Part shown: positions 133-9,506 of the stretch, one piece after another
Position numbering within the stretch: position 1 is the first letter of the stretch
Layout: every line of letters begins with the position of its first letter
NCBI GenBank assembly: GCA_002788135.1
Contig: PFQT01000031.1
Span: 1 to 40,243 of the forward strand
Source: Candidatus Yonathbacteria bacterium CG_4_8_14_3_um_filter_46_25
Lineage (GTDB): Bacteria > Patescibacteriota > Minisyncoccia > Phycocordibacterales > UBA1539
DNA length: 40,243 nucleotides
Reading direction: 5' to 3'
Position numbers and translations under genes: made by a program
The notes under the pieces: generated by a model
What the model was told of the DNA's origin: nothing
Database searches by the model: none
What the model saw: only the letters and a program-made list of their open reading frames with translations

Positions 133-429
133 ATGATGTCTCTATTGTACCAAGTTAGAACCTATTTCCAAAACAAATGATGTCGCACGCGCGGAGCACG
201 TGGTGGCTCTAAATTAAATCGTACGCTCGTATCGTTCCGCCACTGCCTCGCGGACTCGGCGCTCTGCACTCGCCCCGTTCCGCCTTTCCATGCTTATTCT
301 TTTTCGCGGCGGGATTTTTTTTGAAATTGAATGGGCGGAAACGGGGCTCGGTCGGGCTAGTTCAAAATTCAGTTTAGCATAATATGCAAAGTTTAGGTAT
401 TGCAATCTAGCATATACGCTGTTAATATT

Positions 430-651
430 ATGCCAGACACAATACGAACAAGAGAATACGCGGATTTTGTCGGAAAACTGAGAAAAGCTCGGCTTGAAGC
501 AGGTTTACGGCAGGTAGATGTCGCTAAAAAACTAAAGCGCACACAATCGTATGTGTCCCGCGTTGAGGTTGGCGAACAGAGATTGGATATACTAGAATTA
601 AAGAAGTTCGCCGATCTATATAAAAAAGATATAAACTATTTTGTGAAATAA
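430..651 (+). CDS. XRE-family (Cro/CI-like) helix-turn-helix transcriptional regulator
   Basis: ORF track 400..651 starts at TTG; the ATG at 430 is preferred. HTH pattern LRKARLEAGLRQVDVAKKLKRTQSYVSRVEVGEQ. First gene of a tightly packed + strand cluster. Confidence 0.75.
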   Translation: MPDTIRTREYADFVGKLRKARLEAGLRQVDVAKKLKRTQSYVSRVEVGEQRLDILELKKFADLYKKDINYFVK

Positions 652-2182: not shown

Positions 2183-2223
2183 CTAGTTATACACAAAAAA
2201 ATAGACGGCTGAGAGTTGATTTG

Positions 2224-2232
2224 TGGTAAAAT
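2224..2232 (+). promoter_or_regulatory. possible extended -10 promoter element (TGgTAAAAT) for the sce7726-like gene
   Basis: TGGTAAAAT lies 32 nt upstream of the ATG at 2264, inside the 81-nt gap after the preceding gene. Confidence 0.3.
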
Positions 2233-2263
2233 TTCAATATCAGTTGTTCTTGTCTTTTACATC

Positions 2264-2917
2264 ATGGAAACACGAAATTTAAATAAAAAAATAGTTTCCA
2301 CAAACGACCACATCATACGAGCAGAATTACGGCAACTTATCGAAAAAGAATTGGATAAGTATAGAACGCAAACTGGGAAACAGGCAGACATTTTTGAGGA
2401 ACTAGGAGTGAGTCATGGGAGGGCACGGATTGATATAGCCGTGATAAACGGAGTTATGCACGGTTATGAAATCAAGAGCGATAAAGATACCCTCTCACGC
2501 TTGTTTGATCAGATACATGAGTACAATGAAGTTTTTGACAAAATAACGCTCGTTGTGGGTCAGCGTCATTTACTTGATGCCATTCACCAGATTCCGGAAT
2601 GGTGGGGCATCACTCTTGCGAAGATAGATTCAGATGAGCGCGTCGTTTTCTTTACTATTCGTGAAGCAAGGCAGAATGAGGATAACCGAGTGCTTATATC
2701 CATGGCTAGAATGTTGTGGCGTGCACAGGCCCTAAGAATCTTGGAAGAGAAAGGCGCCGCTGATGGGGTGCGATCAAAATCACGCCATGTGATCCATGAG
2801 AAAATCGCAAACATCTTTAAGAATGACCCTAATGCTCTTAGGGAGCACGTTATGACTGCTTTATTTTCTCGTGGAAATCAGCGAGTTGTCTCGCCACTAG
2901 TGTCAAATGGTGGTTAA
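2264..2917 (+). CDS. sce7726-family protein, PD-(D/E)xK nuclease-like
   Basis: ORF track 2216..2917 starts at TTG; the ATG at 2264 (METRNLN) is preferred. Core GRARIDIAVINGVMHGYEIKSDKDTLSRLFDQIHEYNEVFDKITLVV carries a D...E-x-K restriction-endonuclease-like signature. This matches my memory of the sce7726 family, which is normally encoded next to sce7725 family genes. An HMM search is needed to confirm. Confidence 0.65.
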   Translation: METRNLNKKIVSTNDHIIRAELRQLIEKELDKYRTQTGKQADIFEELGVSHGRARIDIAVINGVMHGYEIKSDKDTLSRLFDQIHEYNEVFDKITLVVGQRHLLDAIHQIPEWWGITLAKIDSDERVVFFTIREARQNEDNRVLISMARMLWRAQALRILEEKGAADGVRSKSRHVIHEKIANIFKNDPNALREHVMTALFSRGNQRVVSPLVSNGG

Positions 2918-3995
2918 TACCGATGTTCAACCACATTTGCGGGTTTCCAGTTTTTTCATCCTGTGAGGCGATTCGATTAATCTCCGAGTCCCCGTAGCTG
3001 TAACCAGCTTGTTTATAATATGGTTGTTTGACGAGCTCTTTCGCGTGCGCAATGTACTGATCGTAGCCGGATATTCTTTTGCCGCCATTCTTTTTGTCCA
3101 GATAGTTCAAAGCGCGACCACGAAAAACTTGCCACTGTTCTTCATCTGTGTATCGAATACTTGCGCTTACGCTCGCACCAGGAATATATCCATAAAAAAT
3201 TGGGTGCTGTATCGTGTAGTCAGAGAAAAGCGGCTTGCGGGTGAGCTTGTCGCTTTGAAAAACTCCTTGCCACAACTTCCAATCAGTTCTCGGTAGAGCA
3301 TGTACGTTGAATACCTCAAGCTCGCTTAAATCTCTAGGGAATGATCCCCCCGTAAGAATAAAGGAGCGACAAACTTTAATTTGCGGAAGACGAGAAATTT
3401 TCTCAACAACGGATGCTGCCGTTACGGTTTCGGCAACCGTCTGAAGGTCGACCACTATATCGACATTTTTTATATCAAGCCCGCTATCGTTCACGAATGC
3501 ATCGATGTGAGTCGTCAAGTTTTCGTCTTTGAAATGTGAGTTATCAATCCGGATGCACATTCCTCTGCCATCGATTTTCGCGTATTTGACCGCAACTTTG
3601 CGTGTTGCCATATCAGCATCAGTTCCGACCACTGGAATAATATGCACTACTGGAATCGAAAAAAGATCGACCTCAGTCGCAGCAGACAGGATGTTTTCGA
3701 AGGAAGATGCTCGTATATCCCCGTCGAGTAAATGTACATCAAGGAATACTGTGCTTCTTCCACAATATTTGAGAAGACGTTTCCCTACGTCTGGTAACTG
3801 TCTTAAAAACTTGCTTTTCTCGTCCTCCACGATCTTTCGTCGATCGTCTTTGTCTGTCTTTGGCGGTGGCATGATAAATTCAATGAACGGCGTCAGGAGT
3901 TCGCGACCTTCGGGGGAGAGACGTTCGAAAGCGAGCATTTCTGCTGGCCTCCAACGCAGTATGGGGACATATGGTTTTATTGGTGTCATTTTCAT
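2850..3995 (-). CDS. Beta-protein family / sce7725-like protein
   Basis: 381-aa ORF. The N-terminus KPYVPILRWRPAEMLAFERLSPEGRELLTPFIEFI matches the characteristic start of Beta_protein-family sequences (Y-x-P-i-L-k-x-k-x-x-E...PliE), from memory. Last gene of a 4-gene - strand operon. Adjacent to the sce7726-like gene. Confidence 0.65.
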   Translation of the reverse strand: MKMTPIKPYVPILRWRPAEMLAFERLSPEGRELLTPFIEFIMPPPKTDKDDRRKIVEDEKSKFLRQLPDVGKRLLKYCGRSTVFLDVHLLDGDIRASSFENILSAATEVDLFSIPVVHIIPVVGTDADMATRKVAVKYAKIDGRGMCIRIDNSHFKDENLTTHIDAFVNDSGLDIKNVDIVVDLQTVAETVTAASVVEKISRLPQIKVCRSFILTGGSFPRDLSELEVFNVHALPRTDWKLWQGVFQSDKLTRKPLFSDYTIQHPIFYGYIPGASVSASIRYTDEEQWQVFRGRALNYLDKKNGGKRISGYDQYIAHAKELVKQPYYKQAGYSYGDSEINRIASQDEKTGNPQMWLNIGINHHLTLVARQLADFHEKIKQS

Positions 3996-3998
3996 GTT

Positions 3999-4514
3999 TT
4001 AGTTTTCAATCACTGAACATCCGTCTACATAATAAAAGCCCCTGAACTCAATAAAACGGAACGTGCCCGAGAAGCTTATTTGATCTCCGAGTCGATATAG
4101 TCGCAGTTTCTTTTTCCATTCCGGTTCAAAATTGCACTGGACTGTCCTATTGCTAATAGTGATACCCAAACGAGGCCCTTCAGTTTCTGATGTCTTCCAT
4201 TCGTTTGAATACTTGCCAGAACCAACTACCGGAGTGTCTTTATAAAGGTCGAGTAAGTCCTCTGCTTCTTTAGAAGTTTTTGATGTTTGTACCCGATCTA
4301 TAATATTTGCAATATTGATTGTGCTTGTCGCCGTACTAATTACGCTTACTGCAGCAGTATTTTCTGTTTTAACAAAATCGCCAAAAGGGGTGCTCAGCTT
4401 TGGGATAAAATCAAAAAATCCAAATAACCATCCGAGCACTCCAACAACGACTATACCGAGAGCTAAGTACGCCTGTATGTTTTTGTTGATTTTTATTTCG
4501 CCAAGGATACTCAT
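3999..4514 (-). CDS. hypothetical N-terminally membrane-anchored protein with a small beta-rich C-terminal domain
   Basis: 171-aa ORF. Its start overlaps the upstream stop as ATGA (4511-4514). TM segment AYLALGIVVVGVLGWLFGFF. The C-terminal pattern VQCNF...LGDQISFSG...YVDGCSV resembles small OB-fold (tRNA_anti-like) domains, with low certainty. Confidence 0.55.
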   Translation of the reverse strand: MSILGEIKINKNIQAYLALGIVVVGVLGWLFGFFDFIPKLSTPFGDFVKTENTAAVSVISTATSTINIANIIDRVQTSKTSKEAEDLLDLYKDTPVVGSGKYSNEWKTSETEGPRLGITISNRTVQCNFEPEWKKKLRLYRLGDQISFSGTFRFIEFRGFYYVDGCSVIEN

Positions 4515-5758
4515 ACTTTTGTTTTCATCTTAAACGCATCAGGAAATAGCTGTCGCACTTTTGCAGACTCGTCGTTGACAATTTTGTTCAAATAGAAGAA
4601 GTTTTGGTGTTTGAATCGCACAACGCCAGCAATCACAGCGATGTTAATACCGAGCTCGTTGGCAAGACTTTGTGTTGCCATAGGAGAAGGTGTAATTTTT
4701 GCGTTGCTGATTTCCCATTTACTGTCCGGCAAAACAGCTTCTTCTGCCCATCCGTCGGCTTCATGTTCTCTTTTGCGCTCATCTTCGGTCATTTGACTTC
4801 CGTCTTTCTCTAATAGCTTTTCGTCGTAAAAGATGCTGATGTCTTGGCCGTAATGTCGCGCCACATGAGCCACTTCATGCATAAGTGTGAACCAGAAACT
4901 ATCAAGGCGGTCATACCGAAGCGTAATACCAATTATCGGATTATCTTTATCCTCTAGAATTGCTGCGCCATCGAGGAAAGTTTTTGGAAGATGTCGTTCT
5001 ATCACCACTTTGATTCCTATTTTTCTTAGCTCTTCGCATACTACGATCGGCCCATCACTTTCTGTGCTTAATTTGACAAGATTGCGCATGAATTCAATAT
5101 CAATAACCCCGTGTTTGTATTTCACAGGCATTTTTATTTTCTCTGCTTTTTGGAGTACACGAATTTTCCAAGCGTCTAATGCCCCGGTATCTGTTCGGGG
5201 GGCAGAACGATGACTGATACCGCTACGGAGAAGCGCCACAGGTTGTAAATTTCCACTAAAAGAACCAAAAAAATCTTTCAGTAATTCACCTTTGCTAAAT
5301 TTTTTTAATGTCTTATTGCCAAAGTATCCATAACTCTCCATCGCTTTGACTATTCGTACGTCCCAGCGTTCGTAGCGCGATTCCTCCGATTGGTCAGGTT
5401 TCTGTACGAGAACTTTTTCCGGTATTCCAAGGCCGGTGGCAAGAGCGCGAACCATATCAAGCGTAAGTTGTCGTTTGCCAGAAAGTATTTCGGAAACGCG
5501 ACTACGACTGCCAATGTATGGCACAAGGTCAACAGGTTTAAAGCCGCTTTGTTCCATGCGGAATTTGATTGCTTCGACAGGACTAGGAAGAGCACTCGGA
5601 AATTGTTTTGTCTCGTAGTCCTCGATGAGGACGCTAAGAAGTTCGAGTTGTGCGCCATCGTCAGTGTCAGGATTGGGACTGCGGCTCATAAGCTCCTCAA
5701 CGAGTTTGAGAGCTTCTTCGTAGTCTTTTTGATTTTTTATGACTTTTATCTGGGTCAT
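4511..5758 (-). CDS. HigA-like HTH antitoxin fused to an ImmA/IrrE (COG2856) zinc metallopeptidase domain
   Basis: N-terminal 120 aa align with E. coli HigA (IGSRSRVSEILSGKRQLTLDMVRALATGLGIPEKVL versus IGSKSMVSRVLSGKRKLTLEHAKKLATRFGI). The C-terminal part has FWFTLMHEVAHVARH (HExxH) and a downstream EADGWAEEAVLP, typical of ImmA/IrrE peptidases. Starts 4 nt after the higB stop. Confidence 0.8.
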   Translation of the reverse strand: MTQIKVIKNQKDYEEALKLVEELMSRSPNPDTDDGAQLELLSVLIEDYETKQFPSALPSPVEAIKFRMEQSGFKPVDLVPYIGSRSRVSEILSGKRQLTLDMVRALATGLGIPEKVLVQKPDQSEESRYERWDVRIVKAMESYGYFGNKTLKKFSKGELLKDFFGSFSGNLQPVALLRSGISHRSAPRTDTGALDAWKIRVLQKAEKIKMPVKYKHGVIDIEFMRNLVKLSTESDGPIVVCEELRKIGIKVVIERHLPKTFLDGAAILEDKDNPIIGITLRYDRLDSFWFTLMHEVAHVARHYGQDISIFYDEKLLEKDGSQMTEDERKREHEADGWAEEAVLPDSKWEISNAKITPSPMATQSLANELGINIAVIAGVVRFKHQNFFYLNKIVNDESAKVRQLFPDAFKMKTKV

Positions 5759-5762
5759 GGTT

Positions 5763-6050
5763 TTATACGATTTTCCACTTGCTGTACTCCTTGTGCGTTC
5801 CGATCTTCCTTACTAACACTATCCTTTGCTTATACTCGACCTGTACCCACAACCGGTACCTATTGCCGCATATATTAAAAATTGCTTGCTGGTTGCCTGG
5901 TGTGTCTGCGCTGGGGAACATGCTCTTGAGCTCGTGAGGCGTTTTCCATTCCATGCTCTCGACTTCTGCCTCCCACGATTCGATATGCGATCGGGCATCA
6001 GCGTGTTTCTCTTTGAAGTCGTGCAATTGTTGTTTGCCCAATAATTTCAT
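5763..6050 (-). CDS. higB: type II toxin HigB family (RelE-fold mRNA interferase)
   Basis: 95 aa. MFPSADTPGNQQAIFNICGNRYRLWVQVEYKQRIVLVRKIGTHKEYSKW aligns with E. coli HigB (FPSLD...VFNVGGNELRV...THKEYD). Confidence 0.8.
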   Translation of the reverse strand: MKLLGKQQLHDFKEKHADARSHIESWEAEVESMEWKTPHELKSMFPSADTPGNQQAIFNICGNRYRLWVQVEYKQRIVLVRKIGTHKEYSKWKIV

Positions 6051-6099
6051 CGTGTAAGCAGTTTGTCATAATAATTTGTTCCCATCAAATATATCCTAT

Positions 6100-6122
6100 A
6101 TTGACTACGATTTAAAGTCAAT
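6100..6122. promoter_or_regulatory. inverted repeat ATTGACT-N9-AGTCAAT upstream of higB; candidate operator and -35 elements
   Basis: Perfect 7-bp arms at 6100-6106 and 6116-6122, 50-72 nt upstream of the higB start. Each arm reads TTGACT in one direction. Confidence 0.35.
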
Positions 6123-6228
6123 GCCCTCAAAACGCTTGCAGGACACTTTACACGATACGTCAATAGTTCGGGGTGAAGGGTTGCGGGTATATTCGAAGAT
6201 GTTTCGAGTGAGATTAAAAACTAGGGAG

Positions 6229-6352
6229 CCCCGCCCGCGATCCCTTCTGTCTTTCGCGGGTGGGATGTGCGCGCACAGGGTGGGAGGGGCAAGCACAGAG
6301 GTATTTGCGCCTCGGACATTTCCGCCAGGGCGTCCACGCCCTTGATTTTATT
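6229..6352 (+). other. GC-rich, structure-prone non-coding patch (candidate small RNA, insulator or terminator)
   Basis: 11-bp GC hairpin: 6230-6240 CCCGCCCGCGA pairs with 6254-6264 TCGCGGGTGGG (one G-U). 12-nt palindrome TGTGCGCGCACA at 6266-6277. Terminator-like GGGCG-TCCA-CGCCC at 6328-6341 followed by TTGATTTTATT. Sits in an otherwise AT-rich divergent intergenic region. Confidence 0.3.
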
Positions 6353-6369: not shown

Positions 6370-6466
6370 TCATTTTAAATGAATTTGAACTTCTAAAATA
6401 TTACAAAACTATATGTAAAGTCAGATTGACATTTTGGTTTGATTATGTAAACTTGTGTTACAAATC

Positions 6467-6679
6467 ATGCAAGAATATATTGTAAATGAAGTGAATACAT
6501 TACGGACTCAAAAGAATATCACGCAGGAAGAGCTTGCGGAAAGACTGAAGGTGAGCCGCCAGACAATCATTGCGATTGAAAAAGGAAACTATACACCATC
6601 TGTATTGCTTGCCCTTAAAATCGCCGGCTACTTTAAATTACCGGTTGAACATATTTTTAAAATTTCCTATGAAAAATAA
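6467..6679 (+). CDS. XRE-family helix-turn-helix transcriptional regulator
   Basis: ORF track 6455..6679; the ATG at 6467 is preferred. ITQEELAERLKVSRQTIIAIEKGNYTPSVLLALKIA is a classical HTH_3 pattern. A TTGACA (6426-6431) / TAAACT (6448-6453) promoter-like pair lies upstream. Confidence 0.8.
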   Translation: MQEYIVNEVNTLRTQKNITQEELAERLKVSRQTIIAIEKGNYTPSVLLALKIAGYFKLPVEHIFKISYEK

Positions 6680-7034
6680 AATTACAAAAGAAATAATCGT
6701 GCCTCTCGCTCTCGTAGTGTTGGCAATTTTACTCATGAACCCTTTTCATTTTTGGATGCCGGACATGATGGTAATGGGAATGCTTGTTGCCTTGCTAGTT
6801 CTTTTTGGTATATTTGCGAGCTTTATTCTAAAAGAAAAAGTATTTGATGAACGCGATGATGTAAACCGTTCACTTGCGGGAAGAAACGCGTTTCTCGCAG
6901 GATCAGCAATTCTCATGCTCGGCATTGTGATACAAGGATACTCACACAAGGTAGATTCGTGGTTAGTGATTACTCTGATAGTCATGATAATCGTAAAAAT
7001 CACGACTCGTTTCTGGAACGACAAAAATCTCTAA
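6669..7034 (+). CDS. small integral membrane protein paired with the XRE regulator
   Basis: The ATG at 6669 overlaps the regulator's stop by 11 nt (ORF-track frame 6570..7034). TM segments IIVPLALVVLAILL, MVMGMLVALLVLFGIFASFIL, AFLAGSAILMLGIVI, WLVITLIVMIIV. Confidence 0.6.
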   Translation: MKNKITKEIIVPLALVVLAILLMNPFHFWMPDMMVMGMLVALLVLFGIFASFILKEKVFDERDDVNRSLAGRNAFLAGSAILMLGIVIQGYSHKVDSWLVITLIVMIIVKITTRFWNDKNL

Positions 7035-7049
7035 AATGCAGTTATCCAC

Positions 7050-7090
7050 AAAACGAATGTAAAGTGTACTTTACATTCGTTTTGTTATTT
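7050..7090 (+). terminator. Rho-independent terminator
   Basis: 16-nt perfect inverted repeat AAAACGAATGTAAAGT (7050-7065) / ACTTTACATTCGTTTT (7068-7083), followed by GTTATTTT. Confidence 0.75.
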
Positions 7091-7138
7091 TATATACTTT
7101 ATTTATTAACATTATAAGTTAGTAATTAACAAATTTTT

Positions 7139-7738
7139 ATGAACAAAAATATAGGAATAGTTATTGGGGTTATCGTGTTGGCGGTGATTGTTGGAGGAAT
7201 CTATATATCCAACAATGCAAAAAATGATGCAATGATGGCTAAAGAGCAAATGGAACAGAAGGCCATGGAGGATCAAAAGATGGCTGAAGAAAAAGCCATG
7301 ATGGAAAAGAAAGCGATGGAGCAGAAAGAAAAAGACGACATGATAAAAGCTGACACTACAGAAACCGACGGTATGATGAAAAAAGACGAGACAAGCATGA
7401 TGGATAAAAGCGACACTGTGATGAAGGCGGGTTCATACGAAGCGTACGCCCCGGAAAAAGTGGCTCTCGCTTCCGCTACTCACGACGTAGTTTTATTTTT
7501 CAGAGCAAGCTGGTGTCCGACTTGTAGAACGTTAGACGCGGACATTAAAGCTAATCTTTCAAAAATTCCCGGAAGCCTAGCTATTCTTGATGTGAATTAC
7601 GATAATTCTACTGCGCTCAAACAAAAATATGGCGTTACGTATCAGCATACATTTGTGCAGGTTGATAAAGATGGAAATCTAATCAAAAAGTGGAGCGGTA
7701 GTCCGACACTCTCGGCACTTGTAGCAGAAGTAAAATAA
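7139..7738 (+). CDS. membrane-anchored thioredoxin-like protein with Met/Lys/Glu-rich linker
   Basis: N-terminal TM IGIVIGVIVLAVIVGGIYI. Met-rich low-complexity linker. Thioredoxin fold with FRASWCPTCRTLD (WCxxC active site). Confidence 0.8.
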   Translation: MNKNIGIVIGVIVLAVIVGGIYISNNAKNDAMMAKEQMEQKAMEDQKMAEEKAMMEKKAMEQKEKDDMIKADTTETDGMMKKDETSMMDKSDTVMKAGSYEAYAPEKVALASATHDVVLFFRASWCPTCRTLDADIKANLSKIPGSLAILDVNYDNSTALKQKYGVTYQHTFVQVDKDGNLIKKWSGSPTLSALVAEVK

Positions 7739-7739
7739 C

Positions 7740-9506
7740 ATGTTGCTTCTCCTGATCTCGTTTATCGCAGGAATACTCACGGTGCTTGCACCGTGTATTC
7801 TGCCTCTCCTTCCTGTGATAATAGGGCACTCTATCACAGGCACTACCCCAAGCAGGAGAAGACTTTTTGTGGTTGTGGCATCGCTTGGAATTTCGGTCAT
7901 ACTATTCACACTGCTTCTTAAGGCAAGCTCCTTGTTGATTGATATTCCTCAAGATTTCTGGAAATGGATTTCTGGTGGAATTATTTTCTTATTTGGTTTG
8001 ACTATGGTTTTCCCTGATCTATGGGAAAAATTTTCCCTTGCAAACACCTTAAGCATCAAATCAAATAAAGTATTAACAAAAGGATATCAAAAGAATAGTG
8101 TTTGGGGAGATGTGATCATCGGTGCATCCCTTGGACCTATTTTTTCTGCTTGTAGTCCGACATACTTTGTTATCTTGGCGACAGTCTTGCCCGTCTCGCT
8201 TCTCTTGGGAATTGTCTATCTTTTTACTTATGTTTTAGGATTATCGCTCGCCCTCATATTCGTCGCTCTTTTGGGTGAACGTATTATGGCGAAAGTCGGA
8301 AAAGTTTCAGATCCAAGAGGTTGGTTTAAAAAGATATTTGGAGTCATTTTCATTTTAGTAGCAATAGCTATTATTTCTGGATATGACAAAAAACTTCAAA
8401 TTGGTTTACTTGATGCAGGATTTTTGGATGTAACCAAAATTGAACAAAGGTTGTTAGAGAAAAATGATAAAAAAGATGCAAGTGTAGATAGCGCCTCAAA
8501 CGCGGACGAAAACACCGGACTTGGAGACAAAACCAAGGCAAACGAAGAGTCATTCTTAACCATTAAAGAAAAAGGTGAAAAATTCACCCTTGCGCCTGAC
8601 ATAAGCACCCCCGATGGTTTCATAAATACAAATAATTTACCTGTAACTATAGGCGAATTTAAGGGCAAAAAAGTTGTGTTGTTAGATGTTTGGACATATA
8701 GCTGTATCAATTGTAGGCGCACTATTCCATATCTAAACGAGTGGTATAAAGAATATGAGGATGAAGGGCTTGTGATTATCGGTCTTCACACTCCGGAATT
8801 TTCTTTTGAAAAAGTTCAAGAGAATGTAGAAAAAGCAGTAAAAGATTTTGGTATAAAATATCCAGTGGTACTTGATAATGATTTTTCTACTTGGCAAGCT
8901 TACAAGAATCAATATTGGCCGAGGAAATATTTAATTGATATAGATGGGTATATTGTCTATGGCCATGCTGGAGAAGGTCAATACAAAGAGACAGAAGTTG
9001 CAATACAAAAAGCTCTTCGAGAACGGGCGGATAGACTAGATATGAATGCAGAGGTGTCCTCAAATATATCAAAACCAGAAAATGTTGTGTTTGTGGAACC
9101 TGGCAAGGTAAAAAGTCCGGAAGTATATTTTGGATCTGCGAGAAATGAATACCTTGCAAACGGTACCGTGGGCCGTATGGGTGAGCAGACTCTTTTGATT
9201 CCTTCATCAATCTCTTTCAACAAACTTTACCTTGGTGGTACATGGAATATAACTTCCGAATACGCCGAAAATAAAAGTGCGGGAAGTATCGTCTTTCGCT
9301 ACGAGGCAAAAAATGTCTACATAACCGCAGGGTCATTTGAAGGAGTCGAGGTTGAAATTTATAAAGACGATGTGTTCGTAAAGAAAGTGACCATTAAGAA
9401 CGAAACACTCTACACACTCATCCAAGATGCTGATTATGGAAAGCATGTTTTGCGTATTGTAATACCGAAAGTAGGATTACAAGCTTTTACCTTTACGTTT
9501 GGTTAA
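7740..9506 (+). CDS. DipZ-like fusion: CcdA/DsbD-type thiol-disulfide transporter, TlpA/ResA-like thioredoxin domain and a C-terminal beta domain
   Basis: N-terminal polytopic domain with LAPCILPLLPVIIG and SACSPTYF Cys motifs. Periplasmic redoxin domain with VWTYSCINCRRTIPYL (CxxC) and KYLIDIDGYIV. The extra C-terminal domain matches the architecture of mycobacterial DipZ. Confidence 0.8.
   Translation: MLLLLISFIAGILTVLAPCILPLLPVIIGHSITGTTPSRRRLFVVVASLGISVILFTLLLKASSLLIDIPQDFWKWISGGIIFLFGLTMVFPDLWEKFSLANTLSIKSNKVLTKGYQKNSVWGDVIIGASLGPIFSACSPTYFVILATVLPVSLLLGIVYLFTYVLGLSLALIFVALLGERIMAKVGKVSDPRGWFKKIFGVIFILVAIAIISGYDKKLQIGLLDAGFLDVTKIEQRLLEKNDKKDASVDSASNADENTGLGDKTKANEESFLTIKEKGEKFTLAPDISTPDGFINTNNLPVTIGEFKGKKVVLLDVWTYSCINCRRTIPYLNEWYKEYEDEGLVIIGLHTPEFSFEKVQENVEKAVKDFGIKYPVVLDNDFSTWQAYKNQYWPRKYLIDIDGYIVYGHAGEGQYKETEVAIQKALRERADRLDMNAEVSSNISKPENVVFVEPGKVKSPEVYFGSARNEYLANGTVGRMGEQTLLIPSSISFNKLYLGGTWNITSEYAENKSAGSIVFRYEAKNVYITAGSFEGVEVEIYKDDVFVKKVTIKNETLYTLIQDADYGKHVLRIVIPKVGLQAFTFTFG

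Follow-up and report, generated by a model that had tools for sequence, protein, structure and literature searches.

We found that a five-gene locus of Candidatus Yonathbacteria bacterium CG_4_8_14_3_um_filter_46_25 belongs to PD-λ-2, a family of anti-phage systems that resemble toxin-antitoxin pairs and act by abortive infection, and that it is an obligately cII-linked, four-gene variant of PD-λ-2 carrying one further, unique inserted gene. The window, the whole stretch of DNA analysed, is a contig of 40,243 nucleotides, and its host is probably uncultured and of the Patescibacteria type. The full explanation that we favour, namely a four-gene cII-linked PD-λ-2 subtype working by the mechanism proposed below and carrying a 171-aa gene as cargo, is in our judgement likely.

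Identity of the PD-λ-2 genes

A check of the open reading frames confirmed five intact genes in the coupled layout, with a convergent overlap, that had been described in a sequence-only reading of this DNA. The minus strand carries, in order, a HigB-family (RelE-like) gene of 95 aa (5763..6050; PD-λ-2 A), a gene of 415 aa combining a HigA-like HTH (approximately residues 1-120) with an ImmA/IrrE (M78) metallopeptidase (4511..5758; B), the inserted gene of 171 aa (3999..4514) and a 381-aa Beta gene homologous to P4 beta (2850..3995; C). A and B are separated by 4 nt, B and the inserted gene share a 4-nt ATGA overlap, and the inserted gene ends 3 nt before C. The fifth gene, a 217-aa member of the sce7726/P4 cII family with a PD-(D/E)xK-type motif, lies on the plus strand (2264..2917) and converges on Beta, the two coding 3' ends overlapping by 68 nt according to the ORF coordinates (2850..2917). 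A TTG start at 2216 is possible for this gene, but relatives conserve the ATG start at 2264.

PADLOC models, used as individual HMM profiles on the proteins, matched the first gene to PD-Lambda-2_A (2.8e-37, profile positions 1-93 of 94), the second to PD-Lambda-2_B (6e-134, positions 1-398 of 402) and the Beta gene, on the same strand as B with one inserted gene between, to PD-Lambda-2_C over its full length (5.9e-51). As a HigB protein, a HigA-HTH::ImmA/IrrE peptidase and a Beta protein matched A, B and C, we identify the locus as the named system PD-λ-2, an abortive-infection system experimentally validated in E. coli ECOR42 (Vassallo et al. 2022, Nat Microbiol, PMC9519451). The three proteins, their order and orientation and their tightly coupled junctions are the same as in PD-λ-2, which lacks the extra 171-aa gene found between B and C in the window. 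The sequence-only reading had proposed an undescribed system, while allowing that a match to one already named would speak against this; the full-length PADLOC matches are of that kind, and the proposal of novelty does not hold.

Other profiles agreed with these assignments. A matched Pfam HigB_toxin (2.6e-25), and B matched Pfam Peptidase_M78 (2.3e-06, 27.9 bits, above the cut-off of 22) and HTH_3 at 0.2 bits below the cut-off (9.4e-05), with residues 1-118 sharing 48% identity with a phage protein annotated as HigA. The HExxH residues of B (H294, E295 and H298) were invariant in an alignment of nine sequences with 25-61% identity, and, as read from sequence, the catalytic motifs appear intact in both B (HExxH) and cII (E...D...ExK). 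Like a HigBA type II toxin-antitoxin pair, the locus places a toxin-like gene first, with A in the HigB_toxin family and the roughly 120 N-terminal residues of B resembling HigA. It differs from HigBA in that the canonical small HTH antitoxin is not matched, the partner being a 415-aa metallopeptidase fusion, and in its obligate linkage to two further genes. ImmA/ImmR of ICEBs1, IrrE/DdrO and CapP/CapH likewise pair an M78 HExxH peptidase with an XRE-type HTH, and B had a weak match to PADLOC capP (2.7e-06). Those systems, however, consist of a protease and a separate cleavable repressor, whereas the HTH of B is fused in cis, and no separate cognate repressor gene was found within the window module; the free-standing HTH genes closest by, at 400..651 and 6455..6679, are not part of the conserved module.

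Profile or sequence matches upheld all five gene identifications of the sequence-only reading, apart from the label "sce7725-like" given to Beta. Beta was placed in Pfam Beta_protein (PF14350; 4.3e-62, positions 1-342 of 342) and also matched the PADLOC P4 "beta" model (1.2e-08), and 2264..2917 was placed in NCBIfam sce7726_fam (NF033832; 2.2e-43, 148.3 bits, cut-off 70). Searches of NCBIfam, including sce7725, gave no match to Beta at E <= 0.01, leaving membership of the sce7725 family unsupported; the beta proteins of P4 and of an E. coli plasmid likewise had no NCBIfam match at this threshold. The window thus has the sce7726 member of the sce7725/sce7726 neighbour pair, and no sce7725 member was found. 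A sequence search of the Beta profile against solved structures gave no match. The AF2 model of Beta (pLDDT 89.2, pTM 0.90) had weak matches to TIM-barrel enzymes among known structures (query TM-score <= 0.39), from which we predict a TIM-barrel-like fold. Since 54 columns were invariant in 42 Beta sequences, many of them charged or polar, and the predicted fold is TIM-barrel-like, Beta is probably an enzyme or a ligand sensor, not a passive antitoxin.

Linkage to cII and limits of the module

The gene facing Beta matched the PADLOC "cll" model of gop-beta-cII (3.1e-24), and its orthologue in L189, the closest relative of the window locus, has a precomputed Pfam match to PF26915 Phage_P4_cII. 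Residues E46, D57, E69 and K71 were invariant in 12 sequences including P4 cII, and from this motif alone we make a putative assignment as a PD-(D/E)xK-type nuclease. Pfam gave no significant hit, HSDR_N_2 scoring E = 0.18, and a profile search of solved structures returned insignificant TFIID matches only.

Related loci were sampled by their similarity to the B and C proteins of the window. All 11 related genome loci (Patescibacteria, Acidobacteria, FCPU426 and Ignavibacteriales) carried A-B-C with a convergent cII, A being directly upstream of B in each, as did 60/60 evaluable metagenome loci with regard to A-B-C and cII; the same arrangement, with overlapping cII, is found in L189. The four-gene order, orientation and 3' overlap therefore recur in all 71 evaluable loci, across several phyla and at 45-88% protein identity. 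The convergent Beta/cII overlap was found in 59 of the 60 metagenome loci, where it spans 29-89 nt and is exactly 50 nt in 38, as well as in the 11 genome loci and in plasmid loci of E. coli, Agrobacterium and Rhodococcus.

In contrast to this subtype, cII was absent from PD-λ-2 at three different loci on E. coli chromosomes, which were found via a viral-contig homologue, and their convergent neighbours gave no match when tested as divergent cII. The validated ECOR42 clone reaches only 396 bp past the three listed genes at the cII-side end (PMC9519451). In a rough NJ tree the E. coli-type, cII-less Beta proteins formed a separate clade, so the mechanisms may differ, and as cII is missing from the E. 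coli PD-λ-2 that has been validated, any role of this gene in the window subtype is one that we infer. No description of the four-gene cII-linked form was found in the searchable literature, in which no paper combined PD-lambda-2 with gop and none mentioned PF14350.

The sequence-only reading had also pointed to a link with the gop-beta-cII locus of P4 (Ghisotti 1990). This link proved sound, as the Beta/cII geometry matches the P4 record, in which a Beta-family gene likewise faces a convergent cII/sce7726 gene, alongside the PADLOC "beta" and "cll" matches. In P4 the toxic function, gop, immediately precedes beta within one operon, a position occupied in the window by the HigB-like and HTH-peptidase genes, and no window protein matched the PADLOC gop model. 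P4 also has a terminator between beta and cII where the window has a coding overlap, and its cII is longer (264 aa) and 22% identical to that of the window. The gop-beta-cII system protects against lambda and P1 by an abortive-infection type of defence (Rousset et al. 2022, Cell Host Microbe, PMC9122126), and, as published, an accessory gene of a phage triggers it.

The window module extends over about 2221-6163 and is transferred between genomes as a whole. Upstream of A, DNA similarity ends at window position 6163 with the related locus L001 and at 6121 with L189, such that a leader or promoter region on the minus strand (6051..6163) travels with the module; the flanking genes are conserved in no related locus. 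Promoter-like hexamers occur at 6121-6093 and 6069-6041, in numbers not above chance, and promoter and terminator scans as a whole gave counts not above shuffled expectation. We looked for a tRNA-Glu att-like repeat bounding an island and found none, and the GC-rich spacer at 6160-6350, considered as a structured RNA, had no Rfam match and fold z-scores of -1.6 and -1.4. Parts of the module also occur separately: A-B alone on plasmids and viral contigs, Beta with cII alone in E. coli and Rhodococcus plasmids, and B-C with cII behind a different first gene in Agrobacterium and in locus L042.

The inserted 171-aa gene

The 171-aa gene is a clean single-ORF, lineage-specific insertion at the B/C translational-coupling junction. 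Apart from a gap of approximately 520 bp that corresponds to this gene, the DNA of the module runs colinearly with that of L001 and L189. The gene was absent from 86/86 related B-C junctions (11 genome, 74 metagenome and L189). The L189 B/C junction (4980-5004) aligns twice in the window, at 4535-4511 and at 4010-3986, and the ATG of the inserted gene occupies the position of the C ATG in L189. An imperfect direct repeat of about 20 nt accordingly surrounds the gene on the minus strand, with the left copy, GATGAAAACAAAAGTATGA, at the B stop/ATGA start junction (4511..4535) and the right copy, GATTGAAAACTAAAACATGA, at the end of the inserted gene and the start of C (3992..4012).

The protein itself had no match in Pfam, NCBIfam, PADLOC or PHROG. 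It is predicted to have a membrane helix near the N-terminus, then a linker rich in Ser and Thr, and an OB-fold domain at the C-terminus; the AF2 model, of only moderate confidence (pLDDT 65), places the helix at residues 11-34, and Foldseek matched this model to 3f1z, a "putative nucleic acid-binding lipoprotein" (4.5e-05, target TM-score 0.63). Two distant relatives fell above (P0134, 2.6e-05) and just below (P0128, 1.2e-04) the cut-off of PF12869 tRNA_anti-like, for which the 171-aa protein itself gave no hit; it may resemble PF12869 and 3f1z OB-fold proteins in having a small, membrane- or lipid-anchored OB-fold domain. The description of this protein as anchored is thus supported by the predicted helix, but its inclusion as a conserved member of the system is not. 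Close homologues formed four clusters among 5.8 billion proteins, none of the others being in a PD-λ-2 locus. Relatives lie directly upstream of DNA methyltransferase or restriction-modification genes in three of the four other contexts, and we know of no description of this family at the head of R-M operons. Mutual homology was undetected by BLASTP among the genes of approximately 100 aa that precede different relatives. The gene is best read as mobile accessory cargo, not a core component. It may nevertheless have an acquired role in this lineage, since it is tightly coupled on both sides (-4 and +3 nt) and the exact protein is recorded on 68 contigs.

Proposed mechanism, alternatives and significance

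In E. coli PD-λ-2, B is toxic when expressed alone and A neutralises it, while C is needed for defence against lambda-vir and not for neutralisation (PMC9519451). These are the only homologue experiments on the pair, and they contradict the roles assumed in the sequence-only reading, in which HigB was the toxin and the HTH-peptidase a protease-armed antitoxin. The steps that we propose come from the homologues in E. coli and P4 or from inference, our own results bearing on identity only. A and B would form a co-translated, mutually neutralising pair, as suggested by the E. coli homologue in which A rescues cells from B, and the operon is probably autoregulated through the HTH of B. Beta may couple this pair to infection, by analogy with the requirement for C against lambda-vir in E. 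coli and with the restraint of Gop by beta in P4. Judged by its sequence, cII, the habitual partner of Beta, would most likely be a second effector or a DNA-sensing or DNA-processing partner, and the two genes could be linked in their expression through the conserved overlap of about 50 nt. Toxicity would then be released on a phage cue, through the protease of B and/or the mRNase of A and possibly a cII nuclease, arresting the infected cell.

Three other explanations were weighed against this one. That an ordinary HigBA merely happens to adjoin unrelated genes, a concern that the neighbourhood check addressed, has no other support than the existence of A-B and Beta-cII pairs on their own, and the recurrence of the same order, orientation and overlap in 71/71 evaluable loci refutes it, leaving a negligible probability. 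An addiction or stabilisation cassette of mobile DNA, acting by post-segregational killing and not against phage, would account for the HigB/HigA-like components, which are classic toxin-antitoxin parts, for the A-B pair standing alone on many plasmids and viral contigs, and for a module found in unrelated genomic contexts and hence mobile; P4 gop/beta, too, was first described as a toxin-antitoxin-like pair (PMC9122126). However, the two relatives that have been characterised both defend against phage (PD-λ-2 against lambda-vir, gop-beta-cII against lambda and P1), and a C protein that is dispensable for neutralisation and required for defence argues for a dedicated defence role. We consider addiction as the main function unlikely, the two roles not being mutually exclusive.

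The picture drawn by the sequence-only reading, namely a new system of five components to which the anchored OB-fold protein contributes a function, for instance as a sensor or effector at the membrane that PD-λ-2 has recruited, draws on the inserted gene. This gene is intact, with an OB domain 61-78% identical to that of relatives, and is joined to B by the ATGA overlap and to C by a 3-nt gap; its exact product recurs on the 68 contigs, and its relatives are embedded in R-M defence operons, such that the family may be a portable defence accessory. Against this stand its absence from all 86 junctions, including those of relatives whose A, B and C are 85-88% identical, a DNA alignment in which the insertion is one clean ORF with a duplicated junction on its flanks, and the rarity of close homologues, with four clusters in 5.8 billion proteins and the others outside PD-λ-2. 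We therefore regard functional membership as quite improbable, and retain the four-gene cII-linked PD-λ-2 subtype with a cargo gene.

A broader reading, which we offer tentatively and which, taken as a whole, we would not yet favour, is that a broad modular abortive-infection family may have Beta facing cII as its conserved core, PD-λ-2 and gop-beta-cII being two named tips of it, and that the anchored OB-fold protein may represent a new portable accessory family. The upstream modules may be interchangeable (gop, HigB with an HTH-peptidase, or another small gene with an XRE-peptidase), the four-gene cII-linked form may be dominant in the environment with the three-gene E. coli form as a reduced clade, and the convergent overlap of the coding ends, strictly conserved at about 50 nt, may serve as a regulatory device. 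Current understanding is not overturned by these results. PD-λ-2 and gop-beta-cII have both been validated as anti-phage systems, and to our knowledge no mechanism is known for either. Annotation tools in which three genes define PD-λ-2 overlook a conserved fourth gene, cII, and the inserted OB-fold gene provides a small lead on how defence operons in reduced genomes acquire accessory genes. The retention of cII with a fixed overlap, together with the predicted fold of Beta, links PD-λ-2 to gop-beta-cII and gives mechanistic hypotheses.

A PD-λ-2 operon facing a cII gene

The locus consists of five intact genes. A (5763..6050, - strand, 95 aa) matched Pfam HigB_toxin (2.6e-25) and the PADLOC profile PD-Lambda-2 A (2.8e-37). 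B (4511..5758, - strand, 415 aa) matched Peptidase_M78 (2.3e-06), HTH_3 at borderline level and 398 of the 402 profile positions of PD-Lambda-2 B (6e-134), and over residues 1–118 it shares 48% identity with a phage protein annotated as HigA. A 171-aa gene (3999..4514, - strand), which had no family match in four profile libraries, separates B from C, the Beta gene (2850..3995, - strand, 381 aa), which matched Beta_protein over its full length (4.3e-62) and PD-Lambda-2 C (5.9e-51). The convergent cII gene (2264..2917, + strand) matched NCBIfam sce7726_fam (2.2e-43) and the PADLOC profile 'cll' of the P4 gop-beta-cII system (3.1e-24). A and B are 4 nt apart, B and the 171-aa gene share 4 nt (ATGA), a 3-nt gap precedes C, and the 3' ends of C and cII overlap by 68 nt. 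The ORF list agrees with the sequence-only reading on the coordinates, strands and junctions of all five genes, and the Pfam and NCBIfam searches confirmed its labels HigB, HTH-peptidase, Beta and sce7726; the sole label to fail was 'sce7725-like' for Beta, as no NCBIfam model, sce7725 included, matched this protein.

The same reading had proposed an undescribed conflict system, which was not upheld. By the PADLOC HMMs, three of the four operon genes are the three PD-Lambda-2 components, and these HMMs and the P4 record match Beta and cII to the P4 beta-cII pair. The combination that had been called unfamiliar is therefore two known, related systems joined: the named and validated PD-λ-2 with the partner gene of gop-beta-cII. 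PD-λ-2 was isolated by functional selection from E. coli ECOR42, acts by abortive infection, and encodes a HigB-like protein, a HigA-like HTH protein with a C-terminal peptidase, and a third protein related to a P4 phage antitoxin (PMC9519451). [quoted passage not shown] Given these data, a HigB toxin restrained by a protease-armed antitoxin, as had been suggested for the window, is not the best-supported scheme. The gop-beta-cII system protects against lambda and P1, and in P4 the absence of beta makes gop toxic (PMC9122126). Its trigger is a phage accessory gene. In the P4 record, as in the window, beta (on the same strand as gop) faces a convergent cII annotated as an sce7726 family protein; unlike the window, P4 has a terminator between beta and cII rather than a coding overlap.

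Conservation and surroundings of the module

A genome scan with the Beta protein as query, limited to one genome per species, returned 11 loci from Patescibacteria, Acidobacteria, FCPU426 and Ignavibacteriales, and in all 11 A-B-C is followed by a convergent cII overlapping the end of C. Using B as query, we recovered 80 metagenome loci at 47–78% identity, 60 of them with enough sequence to judge. B-C with a convergent cII was present in 60/60, so that no evaluable metagenome locus lacked C or cII; A was present in 57, lost at the contig end in two and not detected in one. The C/cII 3' overlap measured 29–89 nt in 59 of the 60 and exactly 50 nt in 38. With this recurrence in genomes and metagenomes, the arrangement is non-random. 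At one metagenome locus, cII lies ~1.1 kb from C. The FCPU426 locus (L008), otherwise a complete A-B-C plus cII locus, carries an in-frame stop codon in B (6754-7989), possibly reflecting a pseudogene or a sequencing error.

DNA similarity between the window and its two closest relatives (L001 and L189) ends at ~2220 and ~6121-6163, and the window's flanking genes were found beside the module at no other related locus compared, which argues that the ~3.9-kb block travels as a unit. One flank holds a tRNA-Glu gene (16-90) and, between it and the module, four co-directional genes (400-2182, + strand). They encode an 83-aa XRE HTH protein, a pair of multi-pass membrane proteins of 152 and 138 aa whose junctions overlap, and an anchored protein of 219 aa. 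Of these four, only the HTH gene gave a family match; homologues of it (47–51% identity) occur close to the PD-λ-2 module in L004/L112 and L127 too. On the other side, a small XRE HTH gene (74 aa; HTH_3 match at 1.8e-14) and the start of a gene for a 154-aa membrane protein overlap (6455-7034, + strand), and the two may form a regulator/membrane pair. Just outside the conserved module, a GC-rich stretch (6160-6350) within an AT-rich spacer ends on the + strand in the hairpin AGGGCGTCCACGCCCT and a T-rich tail. It had no Rfam match, and as its fold z-scores were only -1.6 (+) and -1.4 (-), a structured RNA is not well supported.

The inserted 171-aa gene

By DNA comparison the window is colinear with L001 and L189 save for ~520 bp that coincide with the 171-aa ORF. 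L189 is 85–86% identical to the window in B and C, and its C start overlaps the B stop (ATGA). In the window the B/C junction sequence is doubled, as GATGAAAACAAAAGTATGA and GATTGAAAACTAAAACATGA, with one copy before the 171-aa gene and one before C. No gene separates B from C in the 11 genome loci, at 74 metagenome B-C junctions or in L189, the largest gap being 63 nt. The inserted gene is intact and tightly coupled, its protein is recorded on 68 contigs, and it may have a local function.

In the AF2 model of this protein (pLDDT 65), a transmembrane helix spans residues 11-34 and is connected by a disordered Ser/Thr linker to an OB fold; the best structural match of the model was 3f1z, a Klebsiella 'putative nucleic acid-binding lipoprotein' (4.5e-05). 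Close homologues form only four clusters among 5.8 billion proteins, and the C-terminal domain of the protein recurs in 65 proteins among 1.84 billion representatives searched with a profile; when ten of these 65 were scanned with Pfam, one reached tRNA_anti-like and one fell just under the cut-off. Every sampled relative comes after a ~100-aa gene without a family match (L012 232-2820; L013; L014 2-1729; L015/L016; L186-L188), and between close and distant relatives these partner genes showed no detectable similarity. Three of the four contexts have DNA methyltransferase or restriction-modification genes downstream of the relative: one relative precedes a Type III methyltransferase and a ResIII restriction enzyme, another an EcoRI-type methyltransferase, and a more distant one an N6_N4 methyltransferase. 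In L015/L016, the downstream gene has no family name. We read the 171-aa gene as a mobile accessory associated with defence operons that, in this lineage, inserted where B and C are coupled. New here is a unique insertion: the gene encodes an anchored OB-fold protein, and its family is otherwise found at the head of restriction-modification operons.

Modularity and a proposed mode of action

A viral-contig homologue led to three distinct PD-λ-2 loci on E. coli chromosomes (L103-L105), and the C protein of L103, the one tested, matched PADLOC PD-Lambda-2_C at 1.7e-157. An sce7726 gene is absent from all three, and profile searches gave no cII/sce7726 match among the neighbours downstream of C, namely a convergent 317-aa hypothetical protein (L103), a convergent SIR2 protein (L104), and a convergent 254-aa hypothetical protein with a co-directional DUF3223 protein (L105). 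These loci lie in integrase-bounded islands adjoining ffs or ssrA, with other defence genes alongside, including the SIR2 protein (PADLOC PDC-S25, 1e-159) and the DUF3223/HamC-like protein. In the ECOR42 clone that was validated, only 396 bp follow the three listed genes at the C end (PMC9519451), which is too little for a complete convergent cII. The viral-contig loci L035 and L038 likewise carry A-B-C without cII, and in a rough neighbour-joining tree of Beta every cII-less A-B-C locus falls in one clade, apart from the cII-linked forms.

A-B without C or cII occurs on plasmids and many viral contigs. One E. coli phage-plasmid and one Rhodococcus plasmid carry Beta with cII but without A-B, and in both Agrobacterium and locus L042 an unrelated first gene precedes XRE-peptidase, Beta and cII genes. 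On the E. coli plasmid pSTEC1024_3 (L020 3276-5624), the Beta and convergent sce7726 pair has a hok toxin gene next to it, in a region resembling a phage-plasmid; neither HigB/HTH-peptidase nor gop was found upstream of Beta, so the pair can also occur where no toxin module is recognisable upstream. The picture suggested by these gene contents is of a modular family that combines two modules, A-B and Beta/cII. We found no mention of PD-λ-2 together with gop in the searchable literature, and the cII-linked form has thus apparently not been pointed out before. We read it as an obligately cII-linked, four-gene PD-λ-2 subtype, dominant among the environmental relatives sampled here.

The alignments show that the HExxH motif of B, which includes H294 and E295, is invariant across 25–61% identity, and that E46, D57, E69 and K71 of cII are invariant in a PD-(D/E)xK-type pattern. 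Beta has 54 invariant columns, many charged or polar, with D86, D128, R149, D151, D183, H362 and H363 among its invariant residues, and its AF2 model (pLDDT 89, pTM 0.90) alternates strand-helix units. The model matched TIM-barrel enzymes only weakly (query TM-score <=0.39), a new hint that Beta may be TIM-barrel-like. A and B would form an autoregulated pair, each neutralising the other. C couples the A-B pair to defence in E. coli PD-λ-2 (PMC9519451), and Beta may be an enzyme or ligand sensor tying that pair to an infection cue. As a nuclease-like partner of Beta, cII could be a second effector or take part in sensing DNA, and the fixed convergent overlap may couple its expression to that of the operon. 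Activation would then lead to arrest of the infected cell.
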